DNA from: Methanocaldococcus indicus
Lineage (GTDB): Archaea; AGJL01; Methanococci; Methanococcales; Methanocaldococcaceae
Reading direction: 5' to 3'
Assembly: GCF_049554935.1 (NCBI RefSeq)
Contig: NZ_CP186926.1
Span: forward strand, 864,001 to 928,000
Length of the DNA stretch: 64,000 nt
Shown: positions 10,250 through 37,079 of the stretch, one piece after another
Position numbering within the stretch: the stretch's first letter is position 1
Layout of the letters: every line of letters starts with the position of its first letter
Notes under the pieces: generated by a model
What the model was told of the DNA's origin: nothing
The model's database searches: none
Seen by the model: the letters and a program-made list of their open reading frames with translations, nothing else
Made by a program: the position numbers and the translations under genes

Positions 10250-10307
10250 TATGGCGCGGGGGCCGGGATTTGAACCCGGGTAGGGCGGTGCCCAACGGGA
10301 TTAGCAG
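10250..10307 (-). repeat. Attachment site (displaced 3' half of tRNA-Ser)
   Basis: Matches 36990-37047 with one mismatch (10289 T vs 37029 A); identity stops at the anticodon loop. Confidence 0.95.
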
Positions 10308-10548
10308 GAATGATATATAAGCCAACAATATAAAATTATAAAATAGCTTTTTTATCAGAAAATAAGCTTTATTATCAAATATTAGAGTAAGTCCAGTAAG
10401 GTTATAACGCTTTTTTATGTGAAATCTCAAAGGAAATTTTAGAGGACTCTATTTTTTGGATTACTACACTGCTGGACTAAAAAAATTAGTTATAAATAGA
10501 AATGTATAAATATATAAACCATTTAAAAATTTATTAAATCTGTAAATT

Positions 10549-10791
10549 GTGGTATCTATGGATTGGATAAGCAAAGCCATTAAACACCCTGGTTCTTTAA
10601 GAAAGAAACTACATGGTCATTTAGGTAGAGTTATAATTGGTGCCACAAAAAAGCCAATTTTCACGAAATCTGGAGATATTAACATCAATACTTTGAAGCA
10701 GTTTAGGACCACACGAGCATATCATGAGTTAGATAAAATAACAAAACAGCAAATAAATCTTGCAATAACTCTCAGAAGAATAAGAAAGTGA
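10549..10791 (+). CDS. Fusellovirus VP2-like basic DNA-binding virion protein
   Basis: WISKAIKHPG...FTKSGDI...LAITLRRI parallels SSV1 VP2 as I recall it (WVQKAIKRPG...FTKDGDI...LAKRLKRM). Start may be ATG 10558. Confidence 0.75.
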   Translation: MVSMDWISKAIKHPGSLRKKLHGHLGRVIIGATKKPIFTKSGDININTLKQFRTTRAYHELDKITKQQINLAITLRRIRK

Positions 10792-11156
10792 TGATTATGG
10801 AGCTCAAATGTCCAGTTTGTAAAAGTAATTATATTATTTTTGATGAGAGGCATTATGAACTGTATTGCTTTACGTGTGGTTATGTAATTGAAGATCTTTC
10901 TCTTGTTTTAGAAATTAAATATGACAGGGAACTGAACAACTTAGATAAGGAAGTTAAATATAGAAGAATTAAGAAATATAAAGAAAGAAAGGCTATGAAG
11001 TTACTGGCAGAAAAATATGACAAGCTGGGATTACCGGATTACTATTTTTATAGGTTTATTGAGTACTGTCATAGGAAAGGAATAAAGAATAATAACATCA
11101 GCAGACACATGAAGAAGCTGTATAATGACTTTGTGAGAGAATGCTTAGAGAAATAG
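10788..11156 (+). CDS. TFB/TFIIB-type zinc-ribbon protein
   Basis: CPVCKSNYIIFD...ELYCFTCGYVIED followed by a short basic helical region; no cyclin repeats. Confidence 0.75.
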   Translation: MMIMELKCPVCKSNYIIFDERHYELYCFTCGYVIEDLSLVLEIKYDRELNNLDKEVKYRRIKKYKERKAMKLLAEKYDKLGLPDYYFYRFIEYCHRKGIKNNNISRHMKKLYNDFVRECLEK

Positions 11157-11195
11157 CAATTTTTTACTGTTGTCTTTCTTTATTTTTTGGTTTGT

Positions 11196-11215
11196 TGGGG
11201 ATATTAATATCCCCA
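11196..11215. promoter_or_regulatory. Perfect 20-bp palindrome
   Basis: TGGGGATATTAATATCCCCA is its own reverse complement; a half-site-like TGGGGTATTA follows near 11230. Confidence 0.6.
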
Positions 11216-11334
11216 GTAAGTACAATCCTTGGGGTATTATTGTATATTTTTACTATGTGTTCATTTTTTTTAAGTTTTATTTTTCTTATAATTCATAAAC
11301 TTAAATTTAAAAATTAAAATTTTTTACTCAAAGA

Positions 11335-11407
11335 TTGCCGAGTTCAAAAATTTTCGGCAACTTTGCTTTTTTCCAGTCAAAAATTGCCGAGTTAGTGAAG
11401 TCGGCAG
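11335..11407. promoter_or_regulatory. Two imperfect palindromes TTGCCGAGTT...TCGGCA (operator- or res-like)
   Basis: TTGCCGAGTT-caaaaa-TTTTCGGCAA (11335-11360) and TTGCCGAGTT-agtg-AAGTCGGCAG (11384-11407). Confidence 0.6.
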
Positions 11408-11455
11408 TTATCTACATGATGTAAGCAACTTAGGGTTGATATTTGTTTTCCTTTA

Positions 11456-11467
11456 CTCTGAGGTTAC
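11456..11467 (+). promoter_or_regulatory. Element-specific upstream motif CTCTGAGGTTAC (copy 1)
   Basis: Also at 11886-11897 (one mismatch) and 16345-16356; each lies 22-33 nt before a gene start. Confidence 0.65.
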
Positions 11468-11490
11468 TAAATACAATTGGAGGTGCAAAA

Positions 11491-11883
11491 ATGAACGCAT
11501 CAATGAGTGCATCACTGCACAATTTAGCCATACAGGCAATAGCAACTATACACTCTGCACTGAATCAGCCACAATTACCAATAAGAACGAAATTAGAGCT
11601 GATAATTGACAATACAAAATATCTATTGGCGATATCTTCAGCTCTTTTAGAAGAAGAAAAAATAAAAGAATTAAAATCTGACTTAGAAAAAGCAGAAAAG
11701 GCACTATTAAATTTTGAAAAAGTAGAATTAGATGAAAATGAACAAACAATAACAACATATTCTGAGATGCAAGCAAAAATTGAAAGGAAAATCAAAGAAC
11801 GTGAGAAATACATCATAGACACATGTTTGGAAATAGTATCTGAGATTATTAATGCCACAAAAGGGCAGATCTTCTGGCAGTGA
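11491..11883 (+). CDS. Hypothetical helical/coiled-coil viral protein
   Basis: ATG 11491 follows RBS GGAGGTG (the ORF track start of 11443 is likely too long). Confidence 0.7.
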   Translation: MNASMSASLHNLAIQAIATIHSALNQPQLPIRTKLELIIDNTKYLLAISSALLEEEKIKELKSDLEKAEKALLNFEKVELDENEQTITTYSEMQAKIERKIKEREKYIIDTCLEIVSEIINATKGQIFWQ

Positions 11884-11885
11884 TT

Positions 11886-11897
11886 CTCTGAAGTTAC
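11886..11897 (+). promoter_or_regulatory. Element-specific upstream motif CTCTGAAGTTAC (copy 2, before the capsid gene)
   Basis: Followed by TATATAAT and RBS AGGTGA. Confidence 0.65.
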
Positions 11898-11930
11898 TAT
11901 ATAATATAGAGTAGTTTAGGTGAGGCTGAA

Positions 11931-12437: not shown

Positions 12438-12439
12438 AC

Positions 12440-12505: not shown

Positions 12506-12530
12506 GTTTATTTGATTTTTTTATTTTTTC
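12506..12530 (+). terminator. Oligo-T terminator-like tract after the capsid and basic-peptide genes
   Basis: GTTTATTTGATTTTTTTATTTTTTC. Confidence 0.45.
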
Positions 12531-12572: not shown

Positions 12573-12887
12573 ATGATAAGCTTAACACTTTACATTCTTC
12601 TTTGGATTTTAGCGTTAATATTCTTTGGTGCAAGCTTTCTAACTTATGGAGGGAAAAGAATAATTTTCAATGTAATATCATTCATTCTATTCTTTATAAT
12701 TGCTTTAATAGTTGATGTTACTACAGTTCAGGCAATAGAAGTTAATAATACAATACAATATGCCAAAATACACATTGAAGGAGTCAGTATTTTTCAGTAC
12801 ATTAGTTGGATATTTCTAAGTATAACAATAATTAGAGGTATTCAGCACGCATATCTGACATTTTCAAGGTCAAGGGGGGATGAATAA
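12573..12887 (+). CDS. Small viral membrane protein (3 TM)
   Basis: Three hydrophobic segments; stop overlaps the next start. Confidence 0.7.
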   Translation: MISLTLYILLWILALIFFGASFLTYGGKRIIFNVISFILFFIIALIVDVTTVQAIEVNNTIQYAKIHIEGVSIFQYISWIFLSITIIRGIQHAYLTFSRSRGDE

Positions 12888-13306: not shown

Positions 13307-13310
13307 GTAA

Positions 13311-14249
13311 ATGGGAAAAAGAGATACTGAAGTTTATAAATATATATCAGGAATTAAGGACATAAAAATACCAGCAATCTTTAAAATATTATTTCTCCCA
13401 ATATTTGGTATTTTTCTTTCCTTAATTGGTTTTTATTTACTTTATACTAAATACTATCATCTGAACATAATAATTTTTGGATTAATGATAATTATTTTTG
13501 GAATTTTGGCTCTTATTTTTATACTTATTAGAGCATATGCCCCAGAGTTTGTTCTTGAACTGATAAAAATTAAATTTTTCAGGAAGGCTAATGAATGTAT
13601 CATATTTTTTGTTGATGAACTAGGAATAATGGACACTTCAGTGGGTGAAATAGACTTTTCAGTTAGGGAAGTGAAAGATAAAGCAACAGGATTAAGATAT
13701 GAATTTTCAGATGAAGATGTTGTGTATTTCAATAGAGTTCCTGTCTTATTTGTCAGCGGGATTTCTGGAAGGGCAATTCCAGCTAAATATGTGAATTCTC
13801 TCAATTTACTGAAAGATTTGGGATTTAAGACTGTTAAGGATGTCAAGAGATTTATTGAAGAGCATGAGAAAAGAATAGGTGAGAAATTAAAAAGACTAAA
13901 CAAGTTAAAATCTGAGTACCAAGTTCTAAAAGACGAAAATATAAAATTAGAGATTGAGAAGTTGGAGAAAGAGTTAGAACAAGAAAGAAACTTAATAAAA
14001 GAAATTGAGGATGCCATATCAACGATTCCTGCACAAACAATGAAACTTAAGAATGTTGTTAAAGTTTTAGGAAATGAAAATCCTGAAATTAAGATGGCAA
14101 AAGCCCAGAGGTTTTATTTAGCAGGATATATCAGAGGACAGAAGGATGAGGGATTTATTCAAATTCTTAAGTGGATTACTATAATTGCAATAATTTTAGC
14201 AGCCCCGACAATAACATATGTTATTGTAAAAGCGATGGGCGGGTTATAA
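13311..14249 (+). CDS. Viral membrane protein with coiled coil (2 N-terminal TM, 1 C-terminal TM)
   Basis: Hydropathy pattern and heptad-rich central region. Confidence 0.75.
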   Translation: MGKRDTEVYKYISGIKDIKIPAIFKILFLPIFGIFLSLIGFYLLYTKYYHLNIIIFGLMIIIFGILALIFILIRAYAPEFVLELIKIKFFRKANECIIFFVDELGIMDTSVGEIDFSVREVKDKATGLRYEFSDEDVVYFNRVPVLFVSGISGRAIPAKYVNSLNLLKDLGFKTVKDVKRFIEEHEKRIGEKLKRLNKLKSEYQVLKDENIKLEIEKLEKELEQERNLIKEIEDAISTIPAQTMKLKNVVKVLGNENPEIKMAKAQRFYLAGYIRGQKDEGFIQILKWITIIAIILAAPTITYVIVKAMGGL

Positions 14250-14944
14250 TGCTTCCTAAGCTTGAAACTATTGACTTTTACACAGGAGAACGGATTGAAT
14301 ACATCACATATGATGAATTAGAATATATTTGCAATGGGTTATGGAGCCAGTATAGGATATTGGAAGGGAGAAAGTCAGGATATAGACTATTAAGAGCTTG
14401 CTTCATATTCTCATTTTTATTTTTTACAGGGGCGAGAATTACTGAATTTTTATTATCACAAAAATTCTGCATTGATTTTGAACAAATGAACTACTATATA
14501 CCGCAGTTAAAGAAAAAATACTGGAAGAAGCTTCCAGATGACCCTTACATTGACCCTTATGAGAGATTTGAAAACGGGTTAATTAAATATGTTGAAATTC
14601 CAATTGACCATACTCCAAAACACCATATAAAATATTGGAAAGAATGGCTAAAAAATAGAGATGAAGAAGATTTCTTAGTAGATATAAAAGAGAGACAAGT
14701 TAGAAATGTAATTTATAAGTATTCAAAAGAATATTTAGGGAGAAAAATACATCCACATGCCCTTAGACATTCATTAGGTGTTTATTTGACTAATGATTTA
14801 AAACTTCCAGCACAGGATGTTCAAAAAATCATGAGGCATACCAATCCCGATGTGACTTTTAGATACATAAGATTGAAAAATATTGATTTAAAGGAAAAAT
14901 TAAAGTCAGTAAAGGGCAGAGATAATGAAGAGCTGGATGACTGA
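14249..14944 (+). CDS. Second tyrosine recombinase (catalytic domain only)
   Basis: TGARITE, HALRHS, MRH and TFRY motifs; ATG 14249 overlaps the upstream TAA; 231 aa with no N-terminal core-binding domain evident. Confidence 0.85.
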   Translation: MLPKLETIDFYTGERIEYITYDELEYICNGLWSQYRILEGRKSGYRLLRACFIFSFLFFTGARITEFLLSQKFCIDFEQMNYYIPQLKKKYWKKLPDDPYIDPYERFENGLIKYVEIPIDHTPKHHIKYWKEWLKNRDEEDFLVDIKERQVRNVIYKYSKEYLGRKIHPHALRHSLGVYLTNDLKLPAQDVQKIMRHTNPDVTFRYIRLKNIDLKEKLKSVKGRDNEELDD

Positions 14945-16378: not shown

Positions 16379-16750
16379 TTGCAAGTTCAATATGTAATTT
16401 ATATAGCTTATTTGGCATATTTGGCTTATGAAGATTATAAATATAAATCAATTAGAGTCATTGATGGAGCATTATTTTCATTAATTTTCACAATTATAAA
16501 TCCTGAAAATGTTCTAATCTCAATAATCTTTGCTTTAATGTTGTATGTCCTTAGATTGTATGGAATTGGAGATGTGTTCGTAGTTATAGCTACTGTTTCA
16601 ATGTTTGGGATTGATGGGATATTCGTGGTTTTAATCTCATTGCTCTTAGCATATGTCTTTGGAATCATTATTAGAAATAAAAAGATTCCGTACATTCCAA
16701 TGCTTCTTGTTGGTGTTATATCATGGCAGTTGCTCCAGCTATCTATCTGA
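16379..16750 (+). CDS. Prepilin-peptidase-like (A24, GxGD) intramembrane aspartic protease
   Basis: YEDYKY (first Asp), GIGD and C-terminal IPYIP in a multi-TM protein; TTG start. Confidence 0.75.
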   Translation: MQVQYVIYIAYLAYLAYEDYKYKSIRVIDGALFSLIFTIINPENVLISIIFALMLYVLRLYGIGDVFVVIATVSMFGIDGIFVVLISLLLAYVFGIIIRNKKIPYIPMLLVGVISWQLLQLSI

Positions 16751-16968
16751 TTATTGAATTTATAATTATAGCTATTGTGTATTGGATGGTTACTCCAGTT
16801 TTTAATTATTTTATACAATTAGCCCAGATAAACGGGTGGACTCCTGAAGTTACGAGTGTTATAGTCTGGGTTTGGAAATTATTTCCACTAATTTTGATAT
16901 TTGGAACAATAATAGGATATTTCCTTTGGGTCTCAAGAAAAGATGTCACTTCAGGACCAATAGTGTGA
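16723..16968 (+). CDS. Two-TM small protein, possible minor capsid protein (VP3-like)
   Basis: 81 aa hydrophobic hairpin architecture like the capsid protein. Confidence 0.5.
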   Translation: MAVAPAIYLIIEFIIIAIVYWMVTPVFNYFIQLAQINGWTPEVTSVIVWVWKLFPLILIFGTIIGYFLWVSRKDVTSGPIV

Positions 16969-20257: not shown

Positions 20258-21196
20258 ATGTTCCTTCTATTATGTCTCTCAAGAAAATGCAACTTAAATT
20301 GCATTGGCTGTCATGCACACAAATCAGATGAATTAGTACATGAAAACAATCTAAAATTTTTTAAAAGAGCTTTAATCCATACTTTACAACAATACAGACC
20401 AAGAGAAATATGTTTTCATGGTGCTGAAACATTTGTTTGTTCTGAGACAGTCTTAAAAGAAGTCTTAGAAATCATTAACAAATACAAGATAAAAGAAGCT
20501 AAACTAAGTTGCATGTCAAATGGAACTTTAGTTACTGAAAAAAAATACAACTTAATGAAACAGTTTGGGGTATGTGTAAATATCAGTTACAGAGGACCAG
20601 AAGACTTATACAAAAAGATAACCAGAACAGATACTTATGCTGACTGGTTAGAAGGAATTTACTTAGTAAAACCTAAATCAACAATTTTCTATTATCCAAC
20701 AGAATTAGAGGATGAGATTTTGAATAGATACAAAGAGATTGTTGATGATATTGTTGATAAGGGATTCAAATCTGTAAGATTTTCTGAATATTGCTCATCA
20801 ACTCCAAATAAAAGACATTCTGAGTTTGTAATCAAATGTCAAAAATATATAATTAAGATGGGATATGATTTGCAGATACCTGAAATAGTTGATTTATTGA
20901 AGAGAATACAAGGATTGCAGCCAAAAATGAGTTGTAGTTGGGAACATAATTGTATGCAGTTCTTCTGCTTACAACCAAATGGTAAAATGACTTTCTGTAA
21001 TAGGAATATGAAGTCATATAGAGCATTTTATAAAGAATGCTATAGTTGTGAGGCTTATCCATTTTGTAAAGGAGGATGCGAAGCCGTTAGAGAGAAAAAT
21101 GGAGGAATATTCCCATATTGTGATGATAGAAGGAAAATAGTCAGATATGTTAGAGAGAATTACTTTGATTTGGCTTCATATTATGACATTATGTAA
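20258..21196 (+). CDS. Radical SAM protein with SPASM-type C-terminal domain
   Basis: CNLNCIGC, FHGAE, SNGTL, then CSWEHNC...C...CYSCEAYPFCKGGC...C; ATG 20258 after RBS GGGTGAG. Confidence 0.88.
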   Translation: MFLLLCLSRKCNLNCIGCHAHKSDELVHENNLKFFKRALIHTLQQYRPREICFHGAETFVCSETVLKEVLEIINKYKIKEAKLSCMSNGTLVTEKKYNLMKQFGVCVNISYRGPEDLYKKITRTDTYADWLEGIYLVKPKSTIFYYPTELEDEILNRYKEIVDDIVDKGFKSVRFSEYCSSTPNKRHSEFVIKCQKYIIKMGYDLQIPEIVDLLKRIQGLQPKMSCSWEHNCMQFFCLQPNGKMTFCNRNMKSYRAFYKECYSCEAYPFCKGGCEAVREKNGGIFPYCDDRRKIVRYVRENYFDLASYYDIM

Positions 21197-21205
21197 GGAG
21201 ATACT

Positions 21206-21694
21206 ATGATTATTGCCTTAGAAGGGCATCACAGAAGTGGAAAGACAACATTATCTAAGGCATTAGAGGAGTATGGTTTTATCAGAGTAAGAGAATACCT
21301 ATCAAAGTATAGAGTTCTAAGAGCTGATAGGCAGTTGGATGATTGTTCAGTATTCAAAGAAATTCTTGATAATAATGTTTATCAGTATGAACTCTACAAA
21401 GACTGTTATGTAGTATTTGACAGAAGCATATATGATATTTACATTGCAGCTTTCATTTGTTGCAAACCAGCAGCATTTGAAGAATTCAACAGATATTTCA
21501 ACAGAACTACTAAGAAAATCAGGTATGATTACTTAATTTGGTTAGAAGAGTTACATCCTCCTCAGTCTGGCATAGAATATACATTCAATACATTATGCCG
21601 TTGGAAAATCAAACCCATTTGTAATGTTATTTTGCCCGCAACAACAGTTGAAGACAGAATAAAACAATTGATAGGGATAATATGCAAAGAATGA
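21206..21694 (+). CDS. P-loop nucleoside/nucleotide monophosphate kinase-like protein
   Basis: IALEGHHRSGKTT and VVFDRS (dTMP/dNK kinase-like). Confidence 0.8.
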   Translation: MIIALEGHHRSGKTTLSKALEEYGFIRVREYLSKYRVLRADRQLDDCSVFKEILDNNVYQYELYKDCYVVFDRSIYDIYIAAFICCKPAAFEEFNRYFNRTTKKIRYDYLIWLEELHPPQSGIEYTFNTLCRWKIKPICNVILPATTVEDRIKQLIGIICKE

Positions 21695-24690: not shown

Positions 24691-24721
24691 GTGAATCACC
24701 ATTATTTTTATACAAAGCTCA

Positions 24722-25630
24722 CTACCCATCAATGCCAAAATCATCCAACAACAACTGTATTGGAGCTTTTTTCAATTCTTCAATGCAGGAGTTACATATT
24801 TTTATAAACCAGGGCATCCTTTGCAAATTTTCTCCTACATCAACAAACCACTTATTATTTTCCTTTTTTAAATAATCTTTTAACTTTCCATCTCTCAATT
24901 TAACAAGAATATATCTTGCTTTTCTTTTAAATACTTTCTTTTTTTCTCTATCTATGTAGTCCCAATATTTATGCACATTTTTAAGAAGGTCCTCTTCACT
25001 AAACCTTTCATTAGACCATGCGAACTTTATAATCTCTCTAAGAACATACTCAACAAATGCTGGAAAATCCTCTTTATATAAATCAAATGGATATAGGTGA
25101 TTAGGAATATATGCATTTATATGGATTGGGAATATCCTATTTAAATTTCCATTTTGAAAATTTCCTACTTTAAGCTCTATTTTTTCAACTTTTTCAGTAT
25201 TGTTTTGTTTAATCACATGTAAAATGGGTATTCTTTCAGACTTAACCAAATCATTATTACAAATCTCTTCATAAAATGATACAAATGTGCAGTCAGCAAT
25301 GATTTTTTCAGGATTATCTACATTAACAGAAACATAAGTTGGAATTATTTCAGGTTTTTTCTTTAGTTCTATATACTTCTTAGTTTGCTCGTCTTTTAAC
25401 GTTCTTGACTTGCAATCTATAATAACGAAATGTTTATATCTATTTGAAAATAGTAGTATATCTGGGTTAGATGTTTTATTATTCCCTTCAAATGATAACC
25501 CTATATTTGGTTCGATACTGGCTATATTATATCCCATCTCCCAGAACTTATTAGTCCAGTTTCGTATGTTTTTAGATGATAAAGCAAGAATTATATTCAT
25601 TAATTTAGTGTGGTCAGACAACCCTGCCAT
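24722..25630 (-). CDS. Putative PD-(D/E)xK nuclease-fold protein
   Basis: E...NPDILLF...IIDCKS pattern; likely start ATG 25630 (the ORF track gives 25687). Confidence 0.55.
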
Positions 25631-26738
25631 ACTCCACACCTTCCAATGTAGTTTCAGCATCGTAGTATTGCTGTAAGTTACATACAAGCCTTAAAGCAGT
25701 GTTACCGCAAGCACCCTTAGAGAGATATAGTCTTATCCAGTCGGTAGATACATCCATTTCAAACTTATCTCCGTTATGTAAGTCCAAGCCCACAACTGAG
25801 TAGTAATCTTTATCAATTTTTCTTTTAAACCCTGCCAACCTAAATGGCTTTTTTGTTGATAAGAGCATATCTAAAAATTTTTCTATGTCTTCAATTTCTC
25901 TTTCAAATGAAATTAACAACGGAGAGCCACTAACTGCAATACCAAAATCTTTTTTCTCATAATATATTTCATATTCTTCTTCAATTATTTTTAGCATGTT
26001 TGCATATCTTTCTCTAACACCATTTACTATTCTTAAATGTTCGTTAAATGATGTTCCTTTAACTGAGAATTTTCCATTGAAATACAGATTTTCTATGACC
26101 ATAAGCTCTAAATCTTCATAGTATTCAAATGATTTTTTAAATCCAATGCTTGTAATTGCCATAAAGTGTTTATCGTCCAGCTCATTTAATTTGTTAAATA
26201 TTATTTTTAGCAGTTTTCCATTTACTTTCAATGACAAATTGTCTGCTTCATCTGCATCACAAGCTAAGCTATCTAAGTATTTAATACCTATCTGTTTAGT
26301 TTCCACTCCTAATTCATCTTTGAATTTAAGTAAAAACTCCTTATCTAACCATACATTATCTAAACGGCTTGTTCTTGGATTTATCAGTTTTTCCATGTAT
26401 TTGTCAGCAACTTCTGATTTTTCGACAGTGTAAAATAACCAAAACCTGTTATTGCCGAAAGGGTCGTAGGTATCTACATAAAAAGTAGCTTCTTTTTTCC
26501 GTTTCTGGTCTTTTATCTTCAATATCCAAAATCCTTTGGTCTCTGTTTTTTCTATCTTTAATTCTAACTCTTTAATGTAGTTAGGTAAGTTCAATATTGA
26601 AGTGTTTGACTCTACAATGTATGTTTTTACAAGATTTCTTCCCATTTCATATTTTCCTTCTTCAACTAAATTATCATGGCTCTTTATCATATTATTTTCA
26701 AGATGTTCATAAAGGTCCTTTCTTGTCTTAATTTCCAT
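25614..26738 (-). CDS. Hypothetical protein, coupled to the downstream nuclease-like gene
   Basis: 374-aa ORF overlapping the next gene; no motif recognised. Confidence 0.7.
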   Translation of the reverse strand: MEIKTRKDLYEHLENNMIKSHDNLVEEGKYEMGRNLVKTYIVESNTSILNLPNYIKELELKIEKTETKGFWILKIKDQKRKKEATFYVDTYDPFGNNRFWLFYTVEKSEVADKYMEKLINPRTSRLDNVWLDKEFLLKFKDELGVETKQIGIKYLDSLACDADEADNLSLKVNGKLLKIIFNKLNELDDKHFMAITSIGFKKSFEYYEDLELMVIENLYFNGKFSVKGTSFNEHLRIVNGVRERYANMLKIIEEEYEIYYEKKDFGIAVSGSPLLISFEREIEDIEKFLDMLLSTKKPFRLAGFKRKIDKDYYSVVGLDLHNGDKFEMDVSTDWIRLYLSKGACGNTALRLVCNLQQYYDAETTLEGVEYGRVV

Positions 26739-27241: not shown

Positions 27242-28021
27242 TTATAAGAAGTCATCTAATGTTTTATTTTTTAGCTCTTTTATATCCTCTTTTTTGGGAT
27301 ATATAACTGACACTATTAGCCATGTATTCCAAATAGCATGAGTCCCAACTATAAAGTAAGTGTTGTCTTGATAATAAATTTCCTTAGTAAATTTTTTCTT
27401 AACCAATTCACAAGCTTTGTTAGTCCCATATTTCTTTTTTAGTTTCCTGTAAAGTTCTTCAAGTTCCCAATCTTCACACATAATTTTATGTTCATTTGGA
27501 CAGGTTGATGAGCACTTAAATATATACTGAAACTTTTTATCTAAAGGTTCTAATGTGAAAACTGTTTTTCCATCTAAAGTCTTTTGTTTTTTGATATTCT
27601 CTGATTTTATAACTTGTTCTTTTCTATCTTCCCAAACCATATCAGTAATTTTTGGTTTTATAACTCCCAAAGTGCATTCATGCCTCCCTTTACTTTGAAG
27701 CTCTTCCATAGTGGTTAGCCTCTCTTCAAGCATTTTCTTTATATTCCTAAATCTTTCTTCATGTAGTGGAGTAATTGTTTCAGGTTTTATTTTTCTGCTC
27801 TCAGGTCTCCCATCAGGACTTTTATCCTCCCTTAGTTCATACTCTATCCATTGTTTCTTCTTAAATTTAATATTTCCATACCCTGCAAATATTTTCCAAG
27901 GTATTGGGAATATTCTCCGCCACTCCCCTTTTTCAGTTATCCCTGCTACACAAACTAAATTCTCATATTTCTTACTTTGAACTGGAGCAGCTTTTGCTAA
28001 AACAAGTAATCTTTCTTTCAA
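27242..28021 (-). CDS. Hypothetical protein, possibly OB-fold, of the type found beside DUF488
   Basis: KAAPVQSKKY..VCVAGI...WRRIFP, D.RPESRK, C...C..H...CEDWE. Confidence 0.6.
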   Translation of the reverse strand: MKERLLVLAKAAPVQSKKYENLVCVAGITEKGEWRRIFPIPWKIFAGYGNIKFKKKQWIEYELREDKSPDGRPESRKIKPETITPLHEERFRNIKKMLEERLTTMEELQSKGRHECTLGVIKPKITDMVWEDRKEQVIKSENIKKQKTLDGKTVFTLEPLDKKFQYIFKCSSTCPNEHKIMCEDWELEELYRKLKKKYGTNKACELVKKKFTKEIYYQDNTYFIVGTHAIWNTWLIVSVIYPKKEDIKELKNKTLDDFL

Positions 28022-28512
28022 AGATTAACCACCTTAAAATCTATCTTCCCTAATTCTTTAGCAATTATACTCCTATGACATTTTCTCCAATCTTTTTCAT
28101 AACACATTAATACACTCCTATATTCTACTGCATATCTTAATAATTCTTTCAAAGATTCAATGTTTTTATCTAAATGACTCAAATACTCATCCATAAATTC
28201 TATAAAACTAATTTTCCCAGACTTTAATTTGTCTCTCAATTCTTTTGGTGTTCCTAAGAATTTTAAATGCACATATCCAATCCCATGCTCAGTTAAAATT
28301 TCTTTTAGTTTATTCTTTGAAAACCCCTTTTTCCTACTTAATGGAATTTCTCTTACATCAATAACAAGCTCTATTTGATTGTCTTTTAGAATTTTTATAA
28401 ACTCATCTATGCTTCTTCTTTCATAGCCTATTGTGTAAATTGTCTTCCCATCCAGTATATCTAAATACTCCATATTCTCTAATACAACATCTATAGGACT
28501 CATAAATATCAC
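28018..28512 (-). CDS. DUF488 family protein
   Basis: IYTIGYE, DVREIPLSRKKGFSK and LMCYE...CHR motifs. Confidence 0.88.
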   Translation of the reverse strand: MIFMSPIDVVLENMEYLDILDGKTIYTIGYERRSIDEFIKILKDNQIELVIDVREIPLSRKKGFSKNKLKEILTEHGIGYVHLKFLGTPKELRDKLKSGKISFIEFMDEYLSHLDKNIESLKELLRYAVEYRSVLMCYEKDWRKCHRSIIAKELGKIDFKVVNL

Positions 28513-30412: not shown

Positions 30413-32605
30413 TCATGTTATTCCAATATATCCAGGTCTCGGTTCAAATATATCTCCATACTTCTTTAGATTGTTTAATATCCTTTCCGTCTCTTCTTCA
30501 CTAATCCCTACCTCTAACGCTCTCCATATAATCTCATCCTTTAGGACCATATTCCCATTTGGTTCGCATATCTCCTTAATTATATTTAATACTTTATTCT
30601 CTTTCTCTCTCATAGATTTTGGTGTCCCTGCTATCTTATCTATATCTAATGTCCCTGTCTCTGGGTCATATGCTATCTGCCTTAAACAATAATCCATAAT
30701 TTCTATTGCCTCCTTTGCATCTTCCTCATCAACTACTTCCTTTAATTTTGCTTTTGCTATGGCTTCTGCCAACCTTGTTAAACTCTCAGCTTGCCTCATT
30801 GTTATTGGAATCACTCCAAACTCTTCATACCCCTTCTTTCTCATAGTTACATAATATTCAACTAAAATCTTTTCAGCTTTTTCACTAATTATTGGTCTTA
30901 ATTGCCTTGCATAATAGATATACTTGAAAATAAATTCATCATCAATCTTTACTCCTTTAATTGTAAATTCTTTTTTATCATTTAATAATACCTTTTTCTT
31001 CCATCTTAAATTATATTCATAAATGTCTTTGTCTTTCTCTTCCTTAATCTCATCTATTAATGGAAATATTAAATCAAACCTACTAATTAAATATGGTGGT
31101 AAATTTATCTGCTCCGCTATCGGCATATCCTTATCAAATCTCCCCTTCTTTGGATTACATGCAGCTAATATAGAACACCTTGCTGGTAATTTTGCTATTA
31201 TACCTGCCTTGTTTATAGAAACTGTTTGCTGTTCCATAGGTTCTAATAATGCTTTATAAATTGAAGGATTCTGTGCAATCTCATCTATACAACATGTGCC
31301 ACCATCTGCTAAAACTAATGCCCCTGGTTTAACAACCCAACTTTCCATAAACTCTGTTTTTTCCTTTGATAATGATGCAGTTATCCCTACATCAGATGAC
31401 CCAACAGCTGAGGTATATATCGCCCCAAACTTCTCTAACTTCTTCATCATTGTTGATTTTCCTATCCCTGGGTCTGTTATTAATAAAATGTGTATATCCC
31501 CCCTGTAATTATCTACACTAACTCCTTTCACTTGCTGTAAAAATATAGCTTTCTTGACTATATCATAACCTTTTATCTCCTTAAACATTGCATTTGCTAA
31601 CTTCTGAATAACCCCTCTATCTTTTGCTACTTTTTTTATCTTTTCAATGTCTTCATCTGTTAGCTTTATCTCTATTTTATCTAACTCCTCAATCCCTAAA
31701 GATATAACATATATGTCAGATACTGATGTTTTCTTGGATGGTTTCATTATAGGAACTCCTGTTATCTTTACTTTCCCAGAATAATGCCCTTCTTGTCCCT
31801 CTATAAACACAGTTATTGTGTGTTGTCTTCCATCTTTGCTAAACTCTACTGGCTCCTGAATTAATAACTCCTGGAAATTTACAAAGGTGGATAGTTTCTC
31901 TATAAATTCAAAATCAGTCTTATCTTGACAGTTATCACAAATTAATCCCTTCCCTATCTTATTTATGTCATCCCATATCCCTATCTTCACTTTCTTAACT
32001 TTACCACACCTTAAACACATAAATGCTGCTTCTATACACCTTGTCTTTATCTTAGATGCTTGTATTATCATTCCCTCAAATACTACAAGCTTATCTATAT
32101 CTTTACTGCCTATATCTTTTATATTCTTGGAATCTACTATAGGATTAACTATTTGTATATCCTTATCTGGATAATCCCCATATATTTCATAATATGCTTC
32201 ATTGTAAATTTGATTAATTAGTTCTTTAACTTGAAAAGGATATTCTATTATAGCATCATTTAGTTCCATATTCATCGGGAAATTATAACAGAATTCTCTA
32301 ATGTTAAAGGTGCCCCACCTAAAGTCTTCAGAAAGCTTATACTTAATGTATTTCTTAATTGCTGCACCATGATTAATTAAAAATGATTCTTGGTCAAATA
32401 TACTAATTGTTTTTTCTTCTTCTTTGAGTCTAAGATATGCTTCTCCATCTTCTTCAAACATTTCCACAATGCCTCTGTCAATTAACCTTTTTCTACCCCT
32501 TATTACAGATTTTTCATTATATTTTTTAGATAATATTTCTAATATATCCTTCCACTTTGTAACCCCATTCTTTATTAACTCAATAATTTCATCCCCTATT
32601 GCCAT
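30413..32605 (-). CDS. mcm: Element-encoded MCM helicase
   Basis: CxxC...CxxC zinc finger, DPGIGKS, CIDE, MEQQTVSINKAG, AACNP and SRFDL. Confidence 0.95.
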   Translation of the reverse strand: MAIGDEIIELIKNGVTKWKDILEILSKKYNEKSVIRGRKRLIDRGIVEMFEEDGEAYLRLKEEEKTISIFDQESFLINHGAAIKKYIKYKLSEDFRWGTFNIREFCYNFPMNMELNDAIIEYPFQVKELINQIYNEAYYEIYGDYPDKDIQIVNPIVDSKNIKDIGSKDIDKLVVFEGMIIQASKIKTRCIEAAFMCLRCGKVKKVKIGIWDDINKIGKGLICDNCQDKTDFEFIEKLSTFVNFQELLIQEPVEFSKDGRQHTITVFIEGQEGHYSGKVKITGVPIMKPSKKTSVSDIYVISLGIEELDKIEIKLTDEDIEKIKKVAKDRGVIQKLANAMFKEIKGYDIVKKAIFLQQVKGVSVDNYRGDIHILLITDPGIGKSTMMKKLEKFGAIYTSAVGSSDVGITASLSKEKTEFMESWVVKPGALVLADGGTCCIDEIAQNPSIYKALLEPMEQQTVSINKAGIIAKLPARCSILAACNPKKGRFDKDMPIAEQINLPPYLISRFDLIFPLIDEIKEEKDKDIYEYNLRWKKKVLLNDKKEFTIKGVKIDDEFIFKYIYYARQLRPIISEKAEKILVEYYVTMRKKGYEEFGVIPITMRQAESLTRLAEAIAKAKLKEVVDEEDAKEAIEIMDYCLRQIAYDPETGTLDIDKIAGTPKSMREKENKVLNIIKEICEPNGNMVLKDEIIWRALEVGISEEETERILNNLKKYGDIFEPRPGYIGIT

Positions 32606-32774
32606 GACCTACCCCTTTTTCAGATTTATTATTCTGTTCATCAAGAATTATGATTTTTGCAAGCTTTCCAACGTATTTTTTAGGAATTATCACATGTCCG
32701 CTTTTTGAAAAAGGTTTTACTTTTTTAACAATTACAACCATCAGCTTCACCATAGTTGAAAATTTTTCCAACAT
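32589..32774 (-). CDS. DUF2080/AbrB-like small DNA-binding protein
   Basis: VKPFSKSGHVIIPKKYVGK; overlaps the mcm start; true start uncertain. Confidence 0.7.
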   Translation of the reverse strand: MLEKFSTMVKLMVVIVKKVKPFSKSGHVIIPKKYVGKLAKIIILDEQNNKSEKGVGHGNRG

Positions 32775-32929
32775 TTGAAGTCCAATCTTATTATTGGTAT
32801 ATACTCCTATATATAGTTTATGTATTATTCAACAGTAGGTGTCCAAACATGGGCTGAATATTTAACTATTCTATTTAAACTAAAAATAAAAATACTCAAC
32901 TATGGATAATTTCTAGAAAGTGTGAAAAA

Positions 32930-33292
32930 ATGACATTATTGAAGATTTTAGCAAAAAAATACGTAATAGATATCTTAGAATTACTAAATGAGCATGGAGA
33001 GTTAGGATATTCGGACATCTGGAAAACATTAGTGATAGATAAGGGGACATTAAGTAAGCTATTAAAAGAACTTGAAGATGAAGATTTAGTATTACGAAGA
33101 GAAGAAAGGACTGACAGAAGAATTCCAAGAGCTTATTATAGATTATCACCTTATGGTAAGGAAATTGTAAAAATTTGCAAACAATTAAAAGAAGCTGAAC
33201 AGAAGAAACAAGAACTTATATCGTTAGGAAATGATAATATAAACATCCAGATTGGGGAATCAACTAATACCAATATTAATATAAAAAAATAA
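32930..33292 (+). CDS. HxlR/MarR-like winged-helix regulator (copy 1)
   Basis: TLSKLLKELEDEDLVLR...YYRLSPYG; Asn/Ile-rich tail. Confidence 0.85.
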   Translation: MTLLKILAKKYVIDILELLNEHGELGYSDIWKTLVIDKGTLSKLLKELEDEDLVLRREERTDRRIPRAYYRLSPYGKEIVKICKQLKEAEQKKQELISLGNDNINIQIGESTNTNINIKK

Positions 33293-33606
33293 ATATTTAC
33301 ATATTATATTTACTCAGCGACCATTATAGTTAAAATGTGTTAATATTGGGATAACTGTCACTTGTGCTTCTTTTTTTAAAATAAATGTCACCTGTCTTTC
33401 TTTTTAGTGTCACTTTGATGTTACCAAGTGTCACCTCTGCCACTTTTCCGTATTTTAAAAAAATATCATCTAAAACCTTTCATTAAATTATATGCCGAAT
33501 AATAAATTTAATTTTCGTGAAAATAAGCATAAGTGACAGTTATTTTTAAAAAATAAGCTTAAATTATTGAGGTGACACTTTTTGAAATATCTCGTGACAC
33601 TACCTT
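33272..33606 (+). repeat. ~335-bp direct repeat, copy 1, with TGTCAC/GTGACA boxes
   Basis: Nearly identical to 34004-34390 apart from a ~52-bp indel. Confidence 0.92.
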
Positions 33607-33670
33607 GTATATATTAATAATGAATTATATAAAAAATACATTAATAATTAAACAAAAAGGAGGTCTAAAT

Positions 33671-34024
33671 ATGGACATATTAAAAATATTGACTAAAAAA
33701 TACAATAAAGCAATATTATTTTTATTGGAAAAATATGGAACTTTGCATTATAGCGCTATCAAAAAATCTTTAAATAATGTTCATGACCATTTACTTACAA
33801 AGGCTTTAGATGAACTTGTTGAAGCAGGATTAATAAAAAGAGAACTTGAGAATCCAAATATAAGGCCGTCAAGAGTTTTATATTCTTTAACTGATTTAGG
33901 AAAAATGGCATTGAATATATATTCAATTGCAAAAAAGATTGAAGACTCTAGAATCAAAGTTATTGGTAATAATAATATTATTATAAACAATGTATCGTCT
34001 TCTAATATTAATATAAAAAAATAA
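33671..34024 (+). CDS. HxlR/MarR-like winged-helix regulator (copy 2)
   Basis: LTKALDELVEAGLIKR...YSLTDLG; ATG 33671 after RBS GGAGGT; same NINIKK end as copy 1. Confidence 0.85.
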   Translation: MDILKILTKKYNKAILFLLEKYGTLHYSAIKKSLNNVHDHLLTKALDELVEAGLIKRELENPNIRPSRVLYSLTDLGKMALNIYSIAKKIEDSRIKVIGNNNIIINNVSSSNINIKK

Positions 34025-34702: not shown

Positions 34703-34705
34703 GAG

Positions 34706-34918
34706 GTGGTAGGCATGCAAGTAAGAACTGCTAATAATGGAAGAAGGACAAAGATGGGAGGAGAAACCATTGAGAAGGTTAAGAAGTTAATTAAGAGGTA
34801 TTATTTGCTAAGGGAGTTTGAAGAGATGGGCTATCCACAGGAAGAGATTAAGGAAGTTATGGATGAGCTTGTAGCAATGATTGAGGAGGTGGTAAATGAT
34901 GCAAGTGTTAGTCATTGA
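34706..34918 (+). CDS. Small hypothetical protein
   Basis: Purine-rich ORF with RBS GGAGGTG in a tightly packed operon. Confidence 0.55.
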   Translation: MVGMQVRTANNGRRTKMGGETIEKVKKLIKRYYLLREFEEMGYPQEEIKEVMDELVAMIEEVVNDASVSH

Positions 34919-35168
34919 ATCAGATAGTAGTTTAGAGTGCATAAATGTGGATAAGGTAGTGAAGATATACACAAATGGGAAAGTAGTAGTGATAGAGTTA
35001 GAGACTGGGGAAAGGATAAGCTTTGAAGGTGGTAAGGAGAAGCTGAAAGAAATAATTTCTGGGATTGTAACTGAGCAGCCATTGATATACCTAAAGCAAG
35101 TTAGGAGGTTCATCAAAGCCAGCAATTTAGTTGAAGGTGATGATTCAAAAAACATTATTTGTTTATAA
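34896..35168 (+). CDS. Small hypothetical beta-rich protein
   Basis: RBS GAGGTGG; overlaps the previous ORF. Confidence 0.6.
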   Translation: MMQVLVIESDSSLECINVDKVVKIYTNGKVVVIELETGERISFEGGKEKLKEIISGIVTEQPLIYLKQVRRFIKASNLVEGDDSKNIICL

Positions 35169-35198
35169 CCTCCCTCCTTTATAAAATTTTTCCTTGAG

Positions 35199-35381
35199 GT
35201 GATAATGATGGAAAAGACATTAGTTATGATGGAAGTGGATAAAGAACTTTTAGATAAAGCCAAAAGAAAATGGTTAAAAAAAATAGCAAAAATACTTGAA
35301 ATAGATGAAAATAAGCTAAAATATGACGATGATGAAATCGTAAGAGCAGTGTTAATTTTGTATGTCGAAGGTAGGTTTTGA
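35199..35381 (+). CDS. Small ribbon-helix-helix-like protein
   Basis: KTLVMMEVDKELL...DDEIVRAVL pattern. Confidence 0.55.
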   Translation: MIMMEKTLVMMEVDKELLDKAKRKWLKKIAKILEIDENKLKYDDDEIVRAVLILYVEGRF

Positions 35382-35641
35382 GATATAATTCCTTTTTCCT
35401 TTTCCTGGTGGGGGTTATGAAGCTACTAAAATACAGCAAGGAATACAAGATAAATGCCAAGGGGCACATTAGCATAAACATAGAGAGTGTAGTTAAAGAG
35501 TCCATGAAAGTTAAAGGACTGGAACTTAGAAAGCTACTGAGAAACTACCCAATTGAAGTAATATTTGACTTAGAGGATAAAAAGATTACTATTGATTTAT
35601 CTAATTTATTTGATTATGTTGGTAAAAGGTTGGGAGTATGA
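35378..35641 (+). CDS. Small AbrB-like hypothetical protein
   Basis: KINAKGHISINI...IEVIFDLEDKKITI; likely start ATG 35418. Confidence 0.5.
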   Translation: MRYNSFFLFLVGVMKLLKYSKEYKINAKGHISINIESVVKESMKVKGLELRKLLRNYPIEVIFDLEDKKITIDLSNLFDYVGKRLGV

Positions 35642-35892
35642 AAGCAAGGAGGGCTACTTTTTATTTATGTAAGAATATTGATAGTAGAAGATTAAGGTAT
35701 ATTTTGCATAAATTAGAAAACTTGGAGACAATAAATCCAGAAATATTAAAAAAGGTTATTGAAAGTAAGAAATGCTACAGAAGGACAATAATTCTAACTG
35801 ATGAAGAGCTAAAAATATATGAAAAATATGGCAAGGCCATCAATTTATATCTAAATTATCTTTTGGTGAATGAAGATGGAGAAAGGACTTAA
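35638..35892 (+). CDS. MJ0366-like (DUF2540) knotted ribbon-helix-helix protein
   Basis: RATFYLCKNIDSRRLRYILHKLEN closely matches MJ0366 as recalled (RATFYLYKNIDGRKLRYLLHKLEN), which also precedes an integrase. Confidence 0.8.
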   Translation: MKARRATFYLCKNIDSRRLRYILHKLENLETINPEILKKVIESKKCYRRTIILTDEELKIYEKYGKAINLYLNYLLVNEDGERT

Positions 35893-36856
35893 TATCAAAA
35901 ATCTTTTATTAATAAAGCCAAAGAGAGAAAAAGCTGATGAAACACCAGAGATAAAAGAATGGTTGGATAAATTTAAAATTGAGAGAGAGTTTGATGGAAT
36001 AAAAAAAGAAACCATAAGGTCTGATTTAGATAGATTAAGGGTATTTTTAGATTTTGTATATAATAGGTTAAATAAAAAACCTGATGAATTAGAGACACAT
36101 GATTTTATAAAATTTTTCAGTTATTTAGAGAAAGAAAGAAGAGTTAGCAGGAGCACACAAAGGAAATATTATTTGTTATTAAAGGTTTTTTACAAAATTA
36201 TGAGGTTACAACATGTCATTAAAGGATTTATTGAAGAAAGTAAAGAGAGAAAAAGATTTTCAAAAATTGAAGTTAAGCATTATGACCCTGTAGATGATGA
36301 AATAGTTAATCAGATACTAAATAAGATATTAAAGTCAAATAGCAGGGTAAATATCAGAAATGCACTATTAATTAAATTTACTTATGAGACAGGATGTAGG
36401 ATATCTGAAGTTTTAAATTTGAAATATAAAGATTGTGATTTTAATACAGGGATGTTTAGAATAACTAACACTAAAACACATGAAGAGAGGGTAGTTGTAT
36501 GCTCTGAAGAAACGTTAGAAGCCTTGAGATGGTATGTTAGATATAATCCAAGACAAGGACCAGATGATTACATCTTTCAAAAACAAGATGGGAGTAAATT
36601 GAGCAGAAATACAATTTTACATGTATTTAATAAAGTAGTTAAAGAACTAAAAGAAGAGGGTAAAATTCCTATAAATAAAAGGATAACATTACACAGTCTA
36701 AGACATGGGAGAGCTGTTGATTTATTAGAAAAAGGATTACCACTTGATATAGTAAAAGAATTACTTGGACATAAAAGCTTAGACACAACTTTATTTTACT
36801 CACACTCAAAGGAAAGAACTAAGAAATTATTAAAAACTATAAAAAAGATTTTATAG
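35870..36856 (+). CDS. int: Tyrosine integrase (intact, not split by att)
   Basis: N-terminal SAM-like domain, TGCRISE, HSLRHG, LLGH and TTLFY; adjacent to att. Confidence 0.95.
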   Translation: MKMEKGLNIKNLLLIKPKREKADETPEIKEWLDKFKIEREFDGIKKETIRSDLDRLRVFLDFVYNRLNKKPDELETHDFIKFFSYLEKERRVSRSTQRKYYLLLKVFYKIMRLQHVIKGFIEESKERKRFSKIEVKHYDPVDDEIVNQILNKILKSNSRVNIRNALLIKFTYETGCRISEVLNLKYKDCDFNTGMFRITNTKTHEERVVVCSEETLEALRWYVRYNPRQGPDDYIFQKQDGSKLSRNTILHVFNKVVKELKEEGKIPINKRITLHSLRHGRAVDLLEKGLPLDIVKELLGHKSLDTTLFYSHSKERTKKLLKTIKKIL

Positions 36857-36991
36857 CTGCTACTTTTGTAGTCCAGTTAGGTTATTATAAACAAAGGACC
36901 TTAAAATTAATCAGGACTTAGTCCTGTGTAAAAAGTAGATATGAATATCAATTTTTTAGCTTTTTTTGGAAAATAATTTTACAAAAAAGTA

Positions 36992-37079
36992 TGGCGCGGG
37001 GGCCGGGATTTGAACCCGGGTAGGGCGGAGCCCAACGGGATTAGCAGTCCCGCGCCGTACCAGGCTGGGCCACCCCCGC
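36992..37079 (-). tRNA. tRNA-Ser(GCT), CCA encoded
   Basis: Reverse complement folds as a cloverleaf: GCGGGGG acceptor, CGGGA-CTGCTAA-TCCCG anticodon arm, long variable arm, GGTTCAAATCC T-arm, GCCA end. Confidence 0.96.

Follow-up and report, generated by a model that had tools for sequence, protein, structure and literature searches.

Integration site and boundaries

The 64,000-nucleotide (nt) window analyzed here (C1:864001-928000 of the two-contig, 1.436-Mb genome of Methanocaldococcus indicus) contains a 26,740-bp integrated element, which we interpret as the probable provirus of a spindle-shaped virus lineage specific to Methanococcales. The element lies between 65-nt direct repeats that are identical at 63 of 65 positions (97%; start-to-start spacing, 26,740 nt), the right copy being in tRNA-Ser(GCT), the only tRNA gene of the window. 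Beside this copy is an intact integrase gene, the 3' end of which is 126 nt from attR, preceded by a gene for an MJ0366-like protein (Table 1). Direct repeats with one copy in a tRNA gene and a recombinase beside it mark an integrated mobile element, and the att repeats, the intact integrase, and the MJ0366-like gene upstream of it are together a signature of site-specific tRNA-gene integration. Site-specific recombination into tRNA-Ser(GCT) duplicated 65 nt of the tRNA. An earlier note, made by a model from the letters alone, had described intact att repeats and integrase, an MJ0366-like/integrase pair, and an MCM replicon in a hyperthermophilic methanogen. These descriptions are borne out by the repeats, by the complete integrase domains, by the family matches of the MJ0366-like protein and of an MCM with its full domain set, and by the genus of the host.

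The integrase contains a SAM-like N-terminal domain (Pfam; expect value [E], 2.4e-14) and matches the NCBIfam XerA model at an E value of 1.4e-47, below the cut-off of that model. Its ORF (open reading frame) lies whole within the element, with att in the tRNA and outside the int gene, and is thus not a split integrase of the SSV type. Searches of 40 Methanococcales genomes found homologues in 23 of them (E up to 1e-20), and the top matches, which are 70 to 76% identical, are in other integrated elements. No clean empty site was found in 16 other genomes of the genus, where the flanks were present and lay apart (approximately 80% nt identity, with synteny broken). Sequence words of the plus arm were present in one read run that is a possible source and in two read runs of another study, the latter two at shares of 0.81 and 0.78, with no RNA run among those listed. 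Just to the right of the tRNA, at approximately 38054 to 38246 of the window, is an interspersed repeat (approximately 130 nt plus approximately 50 nt) that has many copies in every Methanocaldococcus genome searched.

Morphogenesis genes of the plus arm

The plus-strand genes from 10549 to 24204 form a co-oriented arm of 13.6 kb, and the element has a conserved 14-gene morphogenesis block. The arm carries genes for a VP2-like protein, an ATPase, an adhesin, and membrane proteins, as the earlier note had it, and the absence of obvious frameshifts and of head-tail genes claimed there also held up. The core ORFs are all open and match those of relatives over nearly their full length, without stops. 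When the 37 ORFs of the element were scanned against Pfam and PHROGs, no terminase, portal, HK97-type capsid, or tail family was found, the sole head-type match being a stray "minor head protein" inside the ATPase (E, 0.0016).

The first gene of the arm encodes a VP2-like protein that aligns over the whole length of PF25632 (E, 3.2e-5; 24.7 bits). It matches phrog_15706, of which SSV1 VP2 is the founding member, at an E value of 7.1e-9 and SSV1 VP2 itself by BLASTP at an E value of 7e-8, so that the comparison with SSV1 VP2 suggested earlier does reveal a homologue. The element thereby shares with Fuselloviridae the VP2 that is found in SSV1, if not in all members of the family, and it also shares with them a B251-like (DnaA-like) AAA+ ATPase. 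The PHROG to which the ATPase belongs, phrog_5484, also takes in SSV1 B251 (E, 5.2e-101), His1 ORF16 (E, 2.8e-62), and the ATPase of the Haloferax lemon-shaped virus LSV-48N. Direct comparisons gave E values of 1e-5 to B251 (BLASTP) and 5e-9 to LSV-48N (tblastn), and a search of plasmids with the ATPase gave no match. Among the 40 Methanococcales genomes, its profile matches 4, counting the genome of the element itself. The large adhesin candidate has a signal peptide, a C-terminal membrane anchor, and 31 N-glycosylation sequons, and its relatives vary in the middle and conserve the ends.

Table 1. Features of the integrated element, in order of position in the window
Feature	Position	Strand	Evidence or remarks
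attL, copy of the 3' part of tRNA-Ser(GCT)	10243..10307		65-nt repeat, partner at 36983-37047
attL-proximal noncoding arm	10308..10518		70-78% nt matches at ends of integrated elements in G009, G006, G039
VP2-like basic DNA-binding protein, 80 aa	10549..10791	+	PF25632; phrog_15706; BLASTP to SSV1 VP2
TFIIB-type zinc-ribbon protein, 122 aa	10788..11156	+	PF08271, E 2.7e-11; kept in G009, L023, L024, L026
Helical protein, 146 aa, directly upstream of capsid candidate	11443..11883	+	58-62% identical in G009, L023, L024; no family match
Major capsid protein candidate, 168 aa	11931..12437	+	Architecture, structure model, homologues
Membrane protein, 104 aa, core gene	12573..12887	+	Order kept in G009, L023, L024, L026
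Core protein, 139 aa	12887..13306	+	Matched in 6/6 relatives (G009, L023, L024, L026, G014:C2, G032)
Membrane and coiled-coil core protein, 312 aa	13311..14249	+	Kept in G009, L023, L024, L026, G032; positional 303-aa counterpart in G014:C2
Second, compact tyrosine recombinase, 257 aa, conserved core	14171..14944	+	PF00589, E 1e-11; phrog_1, E 8.8e-15; 39-77% identical in relatives
AAA+ ATPase, SSV1 B251/His1 ORF16 family, 468 aa	14925..16331	+	phrog_5484, E 7.3e-12, profile positions 14-232 of 239
GxGD membrane protein, 123 aa, candidate A24 (prepilin-peptidase-like) aspartyl protease	16379..16750	+	PF01478, motifs, homologues
Predicted catalytic codons of GxGD protein	Asp19 16433-16435; Asp65 16571-16573	+	GIGD motif holds Asp65
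Two-helix membrane protein, 81 aa, second capsid-like candidate, always beside adhesin gene	16723..16968	+	Kept in all five longer relatives
Adhesin/tail-fiber candidate, 832 aa	16973..19471	+	DUF2341 lectin-like domain, PF10102, E 4.1e-10
Two core membrane proteins, 134 and 128 aa	19465..20252	+	Kept in G009, L023, L024, G032; 128-aa protein also in G014:C2
Cargo: radical SAM/SPASM-type enzyme and P-loop kinase-like protein	20258..21694	+	PF04055, E 9.7e-12; AAA_28, E 1.5e-5
Protein of 840 aa, last plus-arm gene	21682..24204	+	Weak conservation in G009, G032; no family match
Acylphosphatase-like, PD-(D/E)XK-like, and phrog_22469 proteins	24262..26738	-	PF00708, E 8.8e-15; phrog_27163, E 2.7e-15; phrog_22469, E 1.1e-61; 70-83% identical in G009
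Cargo: candidate defense pair PDC-M19B and PDC-M19A (DUF488)	27242..28512	-	PADLOC, E 2.2e-41 and 4.3e-36; DUF488, E 3e-32
MCM helicase, 730 aa, replication module	30413..32605	-	PF00493, E 2.4e-74; OB, lid, WH domains
Regulatory region: DUF2080 (-), MarR-type and HxlR-type winged helix-turn-helix (+), exact 268-nt repeat	32589..34024		Family scan and repeat search
MJ0366-like protein (DUF2540), 84 aa, just before integrase	35638..35892	+	PF10802, E 3.1e-26; PDB 2efv, E 1.9e-22
Integrase, 328 aa, XerA-like tyrosine recombinase, intact, beside attR	35870..36856	+	PF00589, E 6.6e-38
attR (36983-37047) within tRNA-Ser(GCT) (36992-37079)	36983..37079	-	tRNA and repeat detection

Relatives and mobility of the block

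Relatives were compared by tblastn of the element proteins and are denoted by genome (G) and contig (C) numbers. The plus-arm block recurs with its gene order unchanged at five other locations, namely, G009:C16, G032:C66, G014:C2, and the metagenome contigs L024 and L026; a sixth match, contig L023, gives the same identities as G009 and is near-identical to the element integrated there. In G009:C16, identity across the morphogenesis genes ranges from 36 to 79%. The carrier of G032:C66 belongs to the other family of the order, and G014:C2 is a separate contig of 27.2 kb. Because the G009 and G032 copies lie between perfect repeats (57 and 66 nt, respectively) at tRNA-Ser(TGA), the family is mobile. 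MCM is present in the element of the window, in G014:C2, and in G032 and was not found in the pieces of G009 that were searched.

G014:C2 provides the best contextual support for the capsid assignment discussed below. It encodes a divergent 121-aa member of the capsid candidate family (hhalign E, 4.4e-5; probability, 69%) directly upstream of a VP2 gene, the product of which reaches 80 bits (E, 1.8e-22) against the fusellovirus VP2 model of Pfam. The order of hairpin protein and then VP2 in G014:C2 is that of SSV1 (VP1-VP3-VP2).

The same genome harbors a small plasmid in addition to this virus-like contig: a 13.1-kb record (L008; G014:C3, positions 1 to 13123) is a head-to-tail dimer of a plasmid of approximately 6.56 kb that encodes a 153-aa member of the capsid candidate family, a 104-aa helix-turn-helix protein, a 1,049-aa helicase-like protein, and a 426-aa primase-like protein. 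The plasmid pSSVx is packaged by fuselloviruses, and, by analogy, the L008 plasmid may be a satellite that is packaged by the G014:C2 element.

The compact recombinase of the plus arm is kept in every longer relative, including the nonintegrated G014:C2; dimer resolution and a role as the original integrase of the lineage are candidate readings of its function.

Capsid candidates

The candidate for the major capsid protein consists of an N-terminal extension of approximately 86 aa, two hydrophobic helices with a conserved NDT motif in the loop between them, and a Gly-rich tail. The structure model places the helices at residues 88 to 121 and 125 to 165 (predicted local distance difference test [pLDDT], 74), and the C-terminal domain is highly conserved among homologues. 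The precursor of SSV1 VP1 has a similar architecture, in which two long hydrophobic helices come after an N-terminal extension. Twelve close homologues were found, and a search of 1.84 billion representative proteins returned 28 matches, 10 of them with E values up to 1e-10; these 28 include hypothetical proteins of Methanococcus maripaludis and Methanococcus voltae, that of M. voltae being encoded on a contig of 24.2 kb. Of the 40 Methanococcales genomes, 3 (own genome counted) have a match to the capsid profile, and the Methanococcus-side genomes among the 40 have none. The profile has no match among PDB sequences at an E value of 10, and tblastn of the candidate in a phage collection likewise found none at an E value of 10. 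In a language-model atlas, the nearest clusters to the C-terminal domain are unnamed, mostly viral, and approximately 90 aa long (score, 0.93), and the VP1_VP3 and His1_capsid clusters score 0.85 and 0.82 for the candidate; we regard all three scores as leads only.

The 81-aa membrane protein encoded next to the adhesin is a second capsid-like candidate. In a tblastn search of a database of four genomes, it matched His1 VP21 weakly (E, 0.012), and its atlas match is likewise a lead only.

A probable spindle-shaped virus of Methanococcales

Taken together, we give a probability of roughly two in three to the reading that the element is a temperate or carrier-state virus of the spindle-shaped (fusellovirus-like) kind, integrated with a genome that is apparently intact and belonging to a Methanococcales-specific lineage, which is a probable new lineage of spindle-type virus in this order. 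The earlier note had proposed an inducible lemon-shaped virus that joins a fusellovirus-like virion module to a methanococcal MCM/integrase module. Of that proposal, the mosaic and virus-like character largely stands, with VP2, the B251/His1 ORF16 ATPase, and the methanococcal MCM, integrase, and MJ0366-like protein; searches by sequence and fold did not show homology to VP1, and inducibility and a lemon shape are predictions. The occurrence of the integrase family in 23 of the 40 genomes and of the attL-proximal arm at the ends of other elements supports the picture of a virus module joined to a methanococcal MCM/integrase module.

Several results weigh against this interpretation, and most of them concern the capsid. 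Neither the 168-aa nor the 81-aa candidate matched PF06281, phrog_11172, or phrog_5402, even at an E value of 10, or the His1 capsid family, and the 168-aa protein had no Pfam or PHROG match at all at E values of 5 to 10. An hhalign comparison of the 38-sequence capsid family with 120 VP1/VP3 homologues gave a probability of 1.2%. Foldseek searches of the capsid model against PDB and BFVD returned nothing at E values up to 0.001, and a wide VIA search returned generic helical hairpins only (Z, 8 to 10). The capsid alignment produced 146 pattern matches among IMG/VR viral contigs, 0 of them confirmed, and a DNA search of a phage collection with the plus arm found no match. The VP2 match, at 24.7 bits, falls below the Pfam cut-off of 27 bits, and VP2 homologues are reported outside spindle viruses as well, in Thermus phage IN93 and the ArcVen-P3 element (PMC4158269). 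The adhesin has a BLASTP E value of 0.33 to SSV1 VP4 (C792) and no match to phrog_6848, whereas C792 has one. The integrase gene of SSV-type viruses splits on integration, and that of the element stays intact. Finally, the attL and attR copies mismatch at 2 of 65 positions, and 0 of the 76 CRISPR (clustered regularly interspaced short palindromic repeat) spacers in the 10 arrays of the host match the element or its relatives, the 5 that match doing so trivially on the contig of their own array. A DNA search of the 40 genomes, of a type not built for spacers, also gave no spacer-like short exact match to the plus arm.

The label "VP1-like" that the earlier note gave to the 168-aa protein therefore found no support in family, profile, or fold matches, and what it retains is a similar architecture. 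The protein is a capsid candidate by architecture and gene context rather than by sequence or fold homology to VP1. Since ORF121, the accepted capsid protein of PAV1, also misses both Pfam capsid models, the misses of the candidate do not count heavily against its being a capsid protein.

The element might also be a virus whose capsid or membrane protein forms a helical hairpin but whose particles have another shape, such as pleomorphic and enveloped, bacilliform, or ovoid. Sequence cannot reveal shape; hydrophobic hairpin capsids have also been assigned to bacilliform viruses of Thermococcales (preprint PMC12934983), and pleomorphic viruses, too, are described as having an NTPase and a large anchored spike alongside small membrane proteins (PMC10919331). 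We nevertheless consider another shape quite improbable, as its ATPase family and its VP2 are the ones that spindle viruses have and the lectin-like adhesin fits what is reported for all of the Thermococcales spindle-shaped viruses of the same preprint (PMC12934983). The Pfam and PHROG scans of the 37 ORFs also gave no match to pleolipovirus families (Pleolipoviridae/Thalassapleoviridae, VP4-like fusion spike), which is weak evidence.

GxGD membrane protein and its possible role in capsid maturation

The GxGD membrane protein of the plus arm is a candidate aspartyl protease. The whole PF01478 profile aligns to it, at 9.1 to 10.6 bits against a curated cut-off of 26.5, and a six-frame scan of the genome with this profile found three sites, of which its gene ranks last, behind two peptidase genes of the host (49 and 46 bits). 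Positional homologues are present in every longer relative, and that of G014:C2 passes the cut-off (35 bits; E, 2e-8); four of five family members match PF01478 at E values up to 5. In an alignment of five homologues, the early Asp is kept, G64 and D65 are invariant, and so are P104 and P107 near the C terminus. The structure model has six helices (pLDDT, 74), so that two Asp residues and the GxGD motif lie on a polytopic helical membrane fold. Among the rows that span the whole model, a wide VIA search found FlaK (3s0x; Z, 6.3; root mean square deviation, 4.9; 109 aligned; rank 8), presenilin-2 (7y5z; Z, 6.0), and SPPL2a (9k93; Z, 5.7), with all three Z scores in the noise range for helical proteins. 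Foldseek of the model found nothing.

The capsid candidate is the sole protein of the block with a long N-terminal extension ahead of a hydrophobic helix. Prepilin peptidases recognize [KR][GA]. This motif was sought directly before the helix in the capsid family, where 34 rows were scored and 4 were too short, and it was present in 13 distant homologues and in 0 of 19 methanococcal-clade rows. In the candidate of the window, the class III signal-peptide site is absent, and R83-V-P-A86 precedes the helix instead. All of the 120 fusellovirus VP1/VP3 homologues have [KR][GA] before the known cleavage point (K/R, 77/43; G/A, 59/61), followed by Glu in 116 of 120.

Mature SSV1 VP1 begins at Glu66, and the protease that produces it is given as unknown by Iverson et al. 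(2017, PMC5748691). In the mutants that these authors describe, deletion of residues 61 to 65 was lethal to the virus, and E66Q and E66A were still infectious. Essential residues 61 to 65 next to a dispensable Glu66 fit an enzyme whose recognition residues lie ahead of the cleavage point. A limited literature search turned up no publication connecting VP1 processing with prepilin peptidases.

We infer that maturation of the capsid protein would be the work of an A24-type peptidase encoded by the element and that fuselloviruses may rely on that of the host. The general form of this proposal is a tentative one, which we hold to be possible and rather doubtful: that the capsid precursors of spindle viruses are prepilin-like substrates with a class III-type signal peptide, cut by an A24 GxGD peptidase, which the methanococcal lineage encodes itself and Sulfolobus fuselloviruses borrow in the form of PibD. 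If true, it would put a name to the "unknown protease" of SSV1 VP1, explain the five essential residues before the dispensable Glu66, and tie capsid assembly at the membrane to the pilin-processing machinery. With a GxGD peptidase in the element and an invariant [KR][GA] in VP1, the long-open question of which protease matures the spindle capsid protein becomes a simple experiment.

The earlier note had set its capsid reading against matches to pilins or conjugation proteins. The candidate has no such match; on the other side, a signal-peptide site of the pilin type is present in its distant homologues, and a prepilin-peptidase-like protein is among the products of the element. We read the site and the GxGD protein as capsid maturation rather than as a pilus.

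Replication module, regulatory region, and cargo

The MCM is 41 to 46% identical to two chromosomal copies and 43% identical to a copy on the 22-kb second contig of the genome. This contig (G000:C2) also has a small CRISPR-like array of 6 repeats at 10794 to 11121. Upstream of three minus-strand genes of the element are near-identical pairs of regions with a spacing of 1,438 to 1,450 nt (27115-27238/28553-28676 and 28909-28965/30359-30414). These pairs adjoin the most AT-rich kilobase of the element (29001 to 30000; GC, 0.217) and may be shared promoters or origin-associated repeats.

The exact 268-nt direct repeat of the regulatory region (33272-33539/34004-34271; period, 732 nt) brackets the genes for the MarR-type (32930-33292) and HxlR-type (33572-34024) proteins, and a second repeat of 113 nt at 88% lies beside it. 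The 268-nt repeat appears to have arisen recently, by tandem duplication or by gene conversion within this region.

Two gene pairs are cargo, namely, the radical SAM enzyme with the kinase-like protein and the PDC-M19 pair. The former has no match in G009 or L023, where the flanking genes adjoin, and is inserted between core genes. Identification of the radical SAM enzyme as a viperin was rejected: the match is to the generic core only, with a PADLOC E value of 4.2e-8 versus 6.4e-13 for radical SAM maturase families, and the protein has a Cys-rich SPASM-like tail.

The two mismatches between attL and attR, together with VP2 and GxGD genes that are more diverged than their counterparts in G014:C2, make some decay possible. 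In its full form, decay would mean a degenerate or domesticated provirus that no longer excises or forms particles and whose cargo, the defense pair and the radical SAM enzyme, is kept by the host. The distance of VP2 from its model (24.7 bits versus 80 bits for the G014:C2 protein), the score of the GxGD protein far below the A24 cut-off, and the exact 268-nt duplication in the regulatory region would suit such a history. We regard it as very improbable in light of the open core ORFs with their nearly full-length matches to relatives, an intact integrase with its domains, and the retention of both predicted catalytic Asp positions in the GxGD protein.

Proposed life cycle and significance

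For a functional spindle-shaped virus, a life cycle can be proposed from the gene content. The integrase would excise and integrate the circle, and MCM would replicate the element, with the origin probably in the AT-rich gap at approximately 28.9 to 29.8 kb (GC, 0.22). The 168-aa precursor would enter the membrane in the form of a helical hairpin and would lose its N-terminal extension, probably through cleavage by the GxGD peptidase of the element. The VP2-like protein would coat the DNA, the B251-family ATPase may act in assembly or DNA handling, and the adhesin, lectin-like, glycosylated, and anchored at its C terminus, would form tail fibers. Particles would leave the cell by budding, without lysis.

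To our knowledge, hardly any viruses are known for hyperthermophilic methanogens. The element and its relatives represent a coherent mobile lineage of Methanococcales in which spindle-virus hallmarks go together with replication modules that can be exchanged and, possibly, with a small satellite plasmid, and the host offers a cultivable lysogen for a particle search. For these methanogens, one isolated head-tailed virus is named in PMC9796341, and according to the 2025 ICTV summary (PMC12451623), no spindle-shaped methanogen virus was classified before an uncultured Methanosarcina virus.

Comparison with known systems

Plasmids of the pT26-2 family, often MCM bearing, are integrated in Methanococcales (Badel et al. 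2019, PMC6972569), and their integrases are reported to target tRNA-Ser(TGA), tRNA-Ser(GCT), or tRNA-Leu, with att sites of 50 to 60 nt (PMC8371274). The element resembles them in integrase and att type, the attL-proximal arm, MCM, and acylphosphatase. It could accordingly be conceived as an integrative plasmid, in which the conserved membrane proteins, together with the ATPase and the GxGD peptidase, are parts of an apparatus at the cell surface or for DNA/protein transfer, a role that has been proposed for the pT26-2 core genes, and VP2 is a plasmid DNA-binding protein. Integrase, attL-proximal arm, MCM, acylphosphatase, and the MJ0366-like gene are indeed common to methanococcal plasmid-type elements (Badel et al. 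2019, PMC6972569). For its part, G014:C2 forms a contig of its own, the source labels a co-resident gene of the capsid candidate family as plasmid borne, capsid homology is unproven, and prepilin peptidases normally serve pili.

This alternative is nonetheless unlikely in our judgment. When the 37 element proteins were compared by tblastn with pMEFER01, a listed member of the pT26-2 family, only MCM and the acylphosphatase matched, and 0 of the morphogenesis genes did, so that the morphogenesis block is a different system. Nothing of the conserved pT26-2 core, with its seven genes within the t26-4p to t26-15p block, is present in the element, and the 22-kb contig of the same genome shares MCM only. 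The element is therefore not a pT26-2-family plasmid. Its ATPase is of the B251/His1 family, compared with a HerA/VirB4-like ATPase in the pT26-2 core (Badel et al. 2019, PMC6972569). No PilB/FlaI-type ATPase or PilC/FlaJ-type platform protein was found among the 37 ORFs in the Pfam and PHROG scans, and VP2 lies beside the hairpin protein in G014:C2, as in SSV1.

Among spindle-shaped viruses, the element is like SSV1 and other Fuselloviridae in its VP2 homologue, its B251-family AAA+ ATPase, and a two-helix hydrophobic protein with an N-terminal extension. Further likenesses are a large terminal adhesin gene, a tyrosine recombinase, integration into a tRNA gene, and, in a relative, the order of capsid candidate and then VP2. 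It differs in that VP1/VP3 (PF06281) and VP4 (phrog_6848) homology is not detectable, in size (26.7 kb versus 15.5 kb), in its euryarchaeal methanogen host, and in carrying MCM, a GxGD peptidase, and a second recombinase.

For Methanococcales, oblate or spindle-shaped particles, the A3 virus-like particle of Methanococcus voltae A3, were described in a 1989 report (cited in PMC9796341). The host order is the same, and a homologue of the capsid candidate is present in an M. voltae record (24.2-kb contig). The putative A3 provirus is tied to PAV1 by an ORF180b/137/375 cassette (PMC3543421), which the element lacks.

In comparison with PAV1 itself, no element protein matched below an E value of 0.26, and the PAV1 ORF375-type ATPase cassette was not found. 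There are likenesses to PAV1, TPV1, and the candidate Thermococcales spindle families with MCM that a 2026 preprint describes (PMC12934983). Their hosts are also euryarchaea of hydrothermal vents, and they also have a hairpin capsid followed by a run of membrane proteins and by lectin-like (concanavalin/LamG-type) adhesins. The preprint reports exchangeable replication modules in these viruses, MCM among them, and the replication modules of the element family vary as well. Unlike those of the Thermococcales families, the MCM of the element is methanococcal and close to the host copies (41 to 46% identity). The most fitting place for the element is among the spindle-type viruses of archaea, as a new variant specific to Methanococcales and not as a member of Fuselloviridae.

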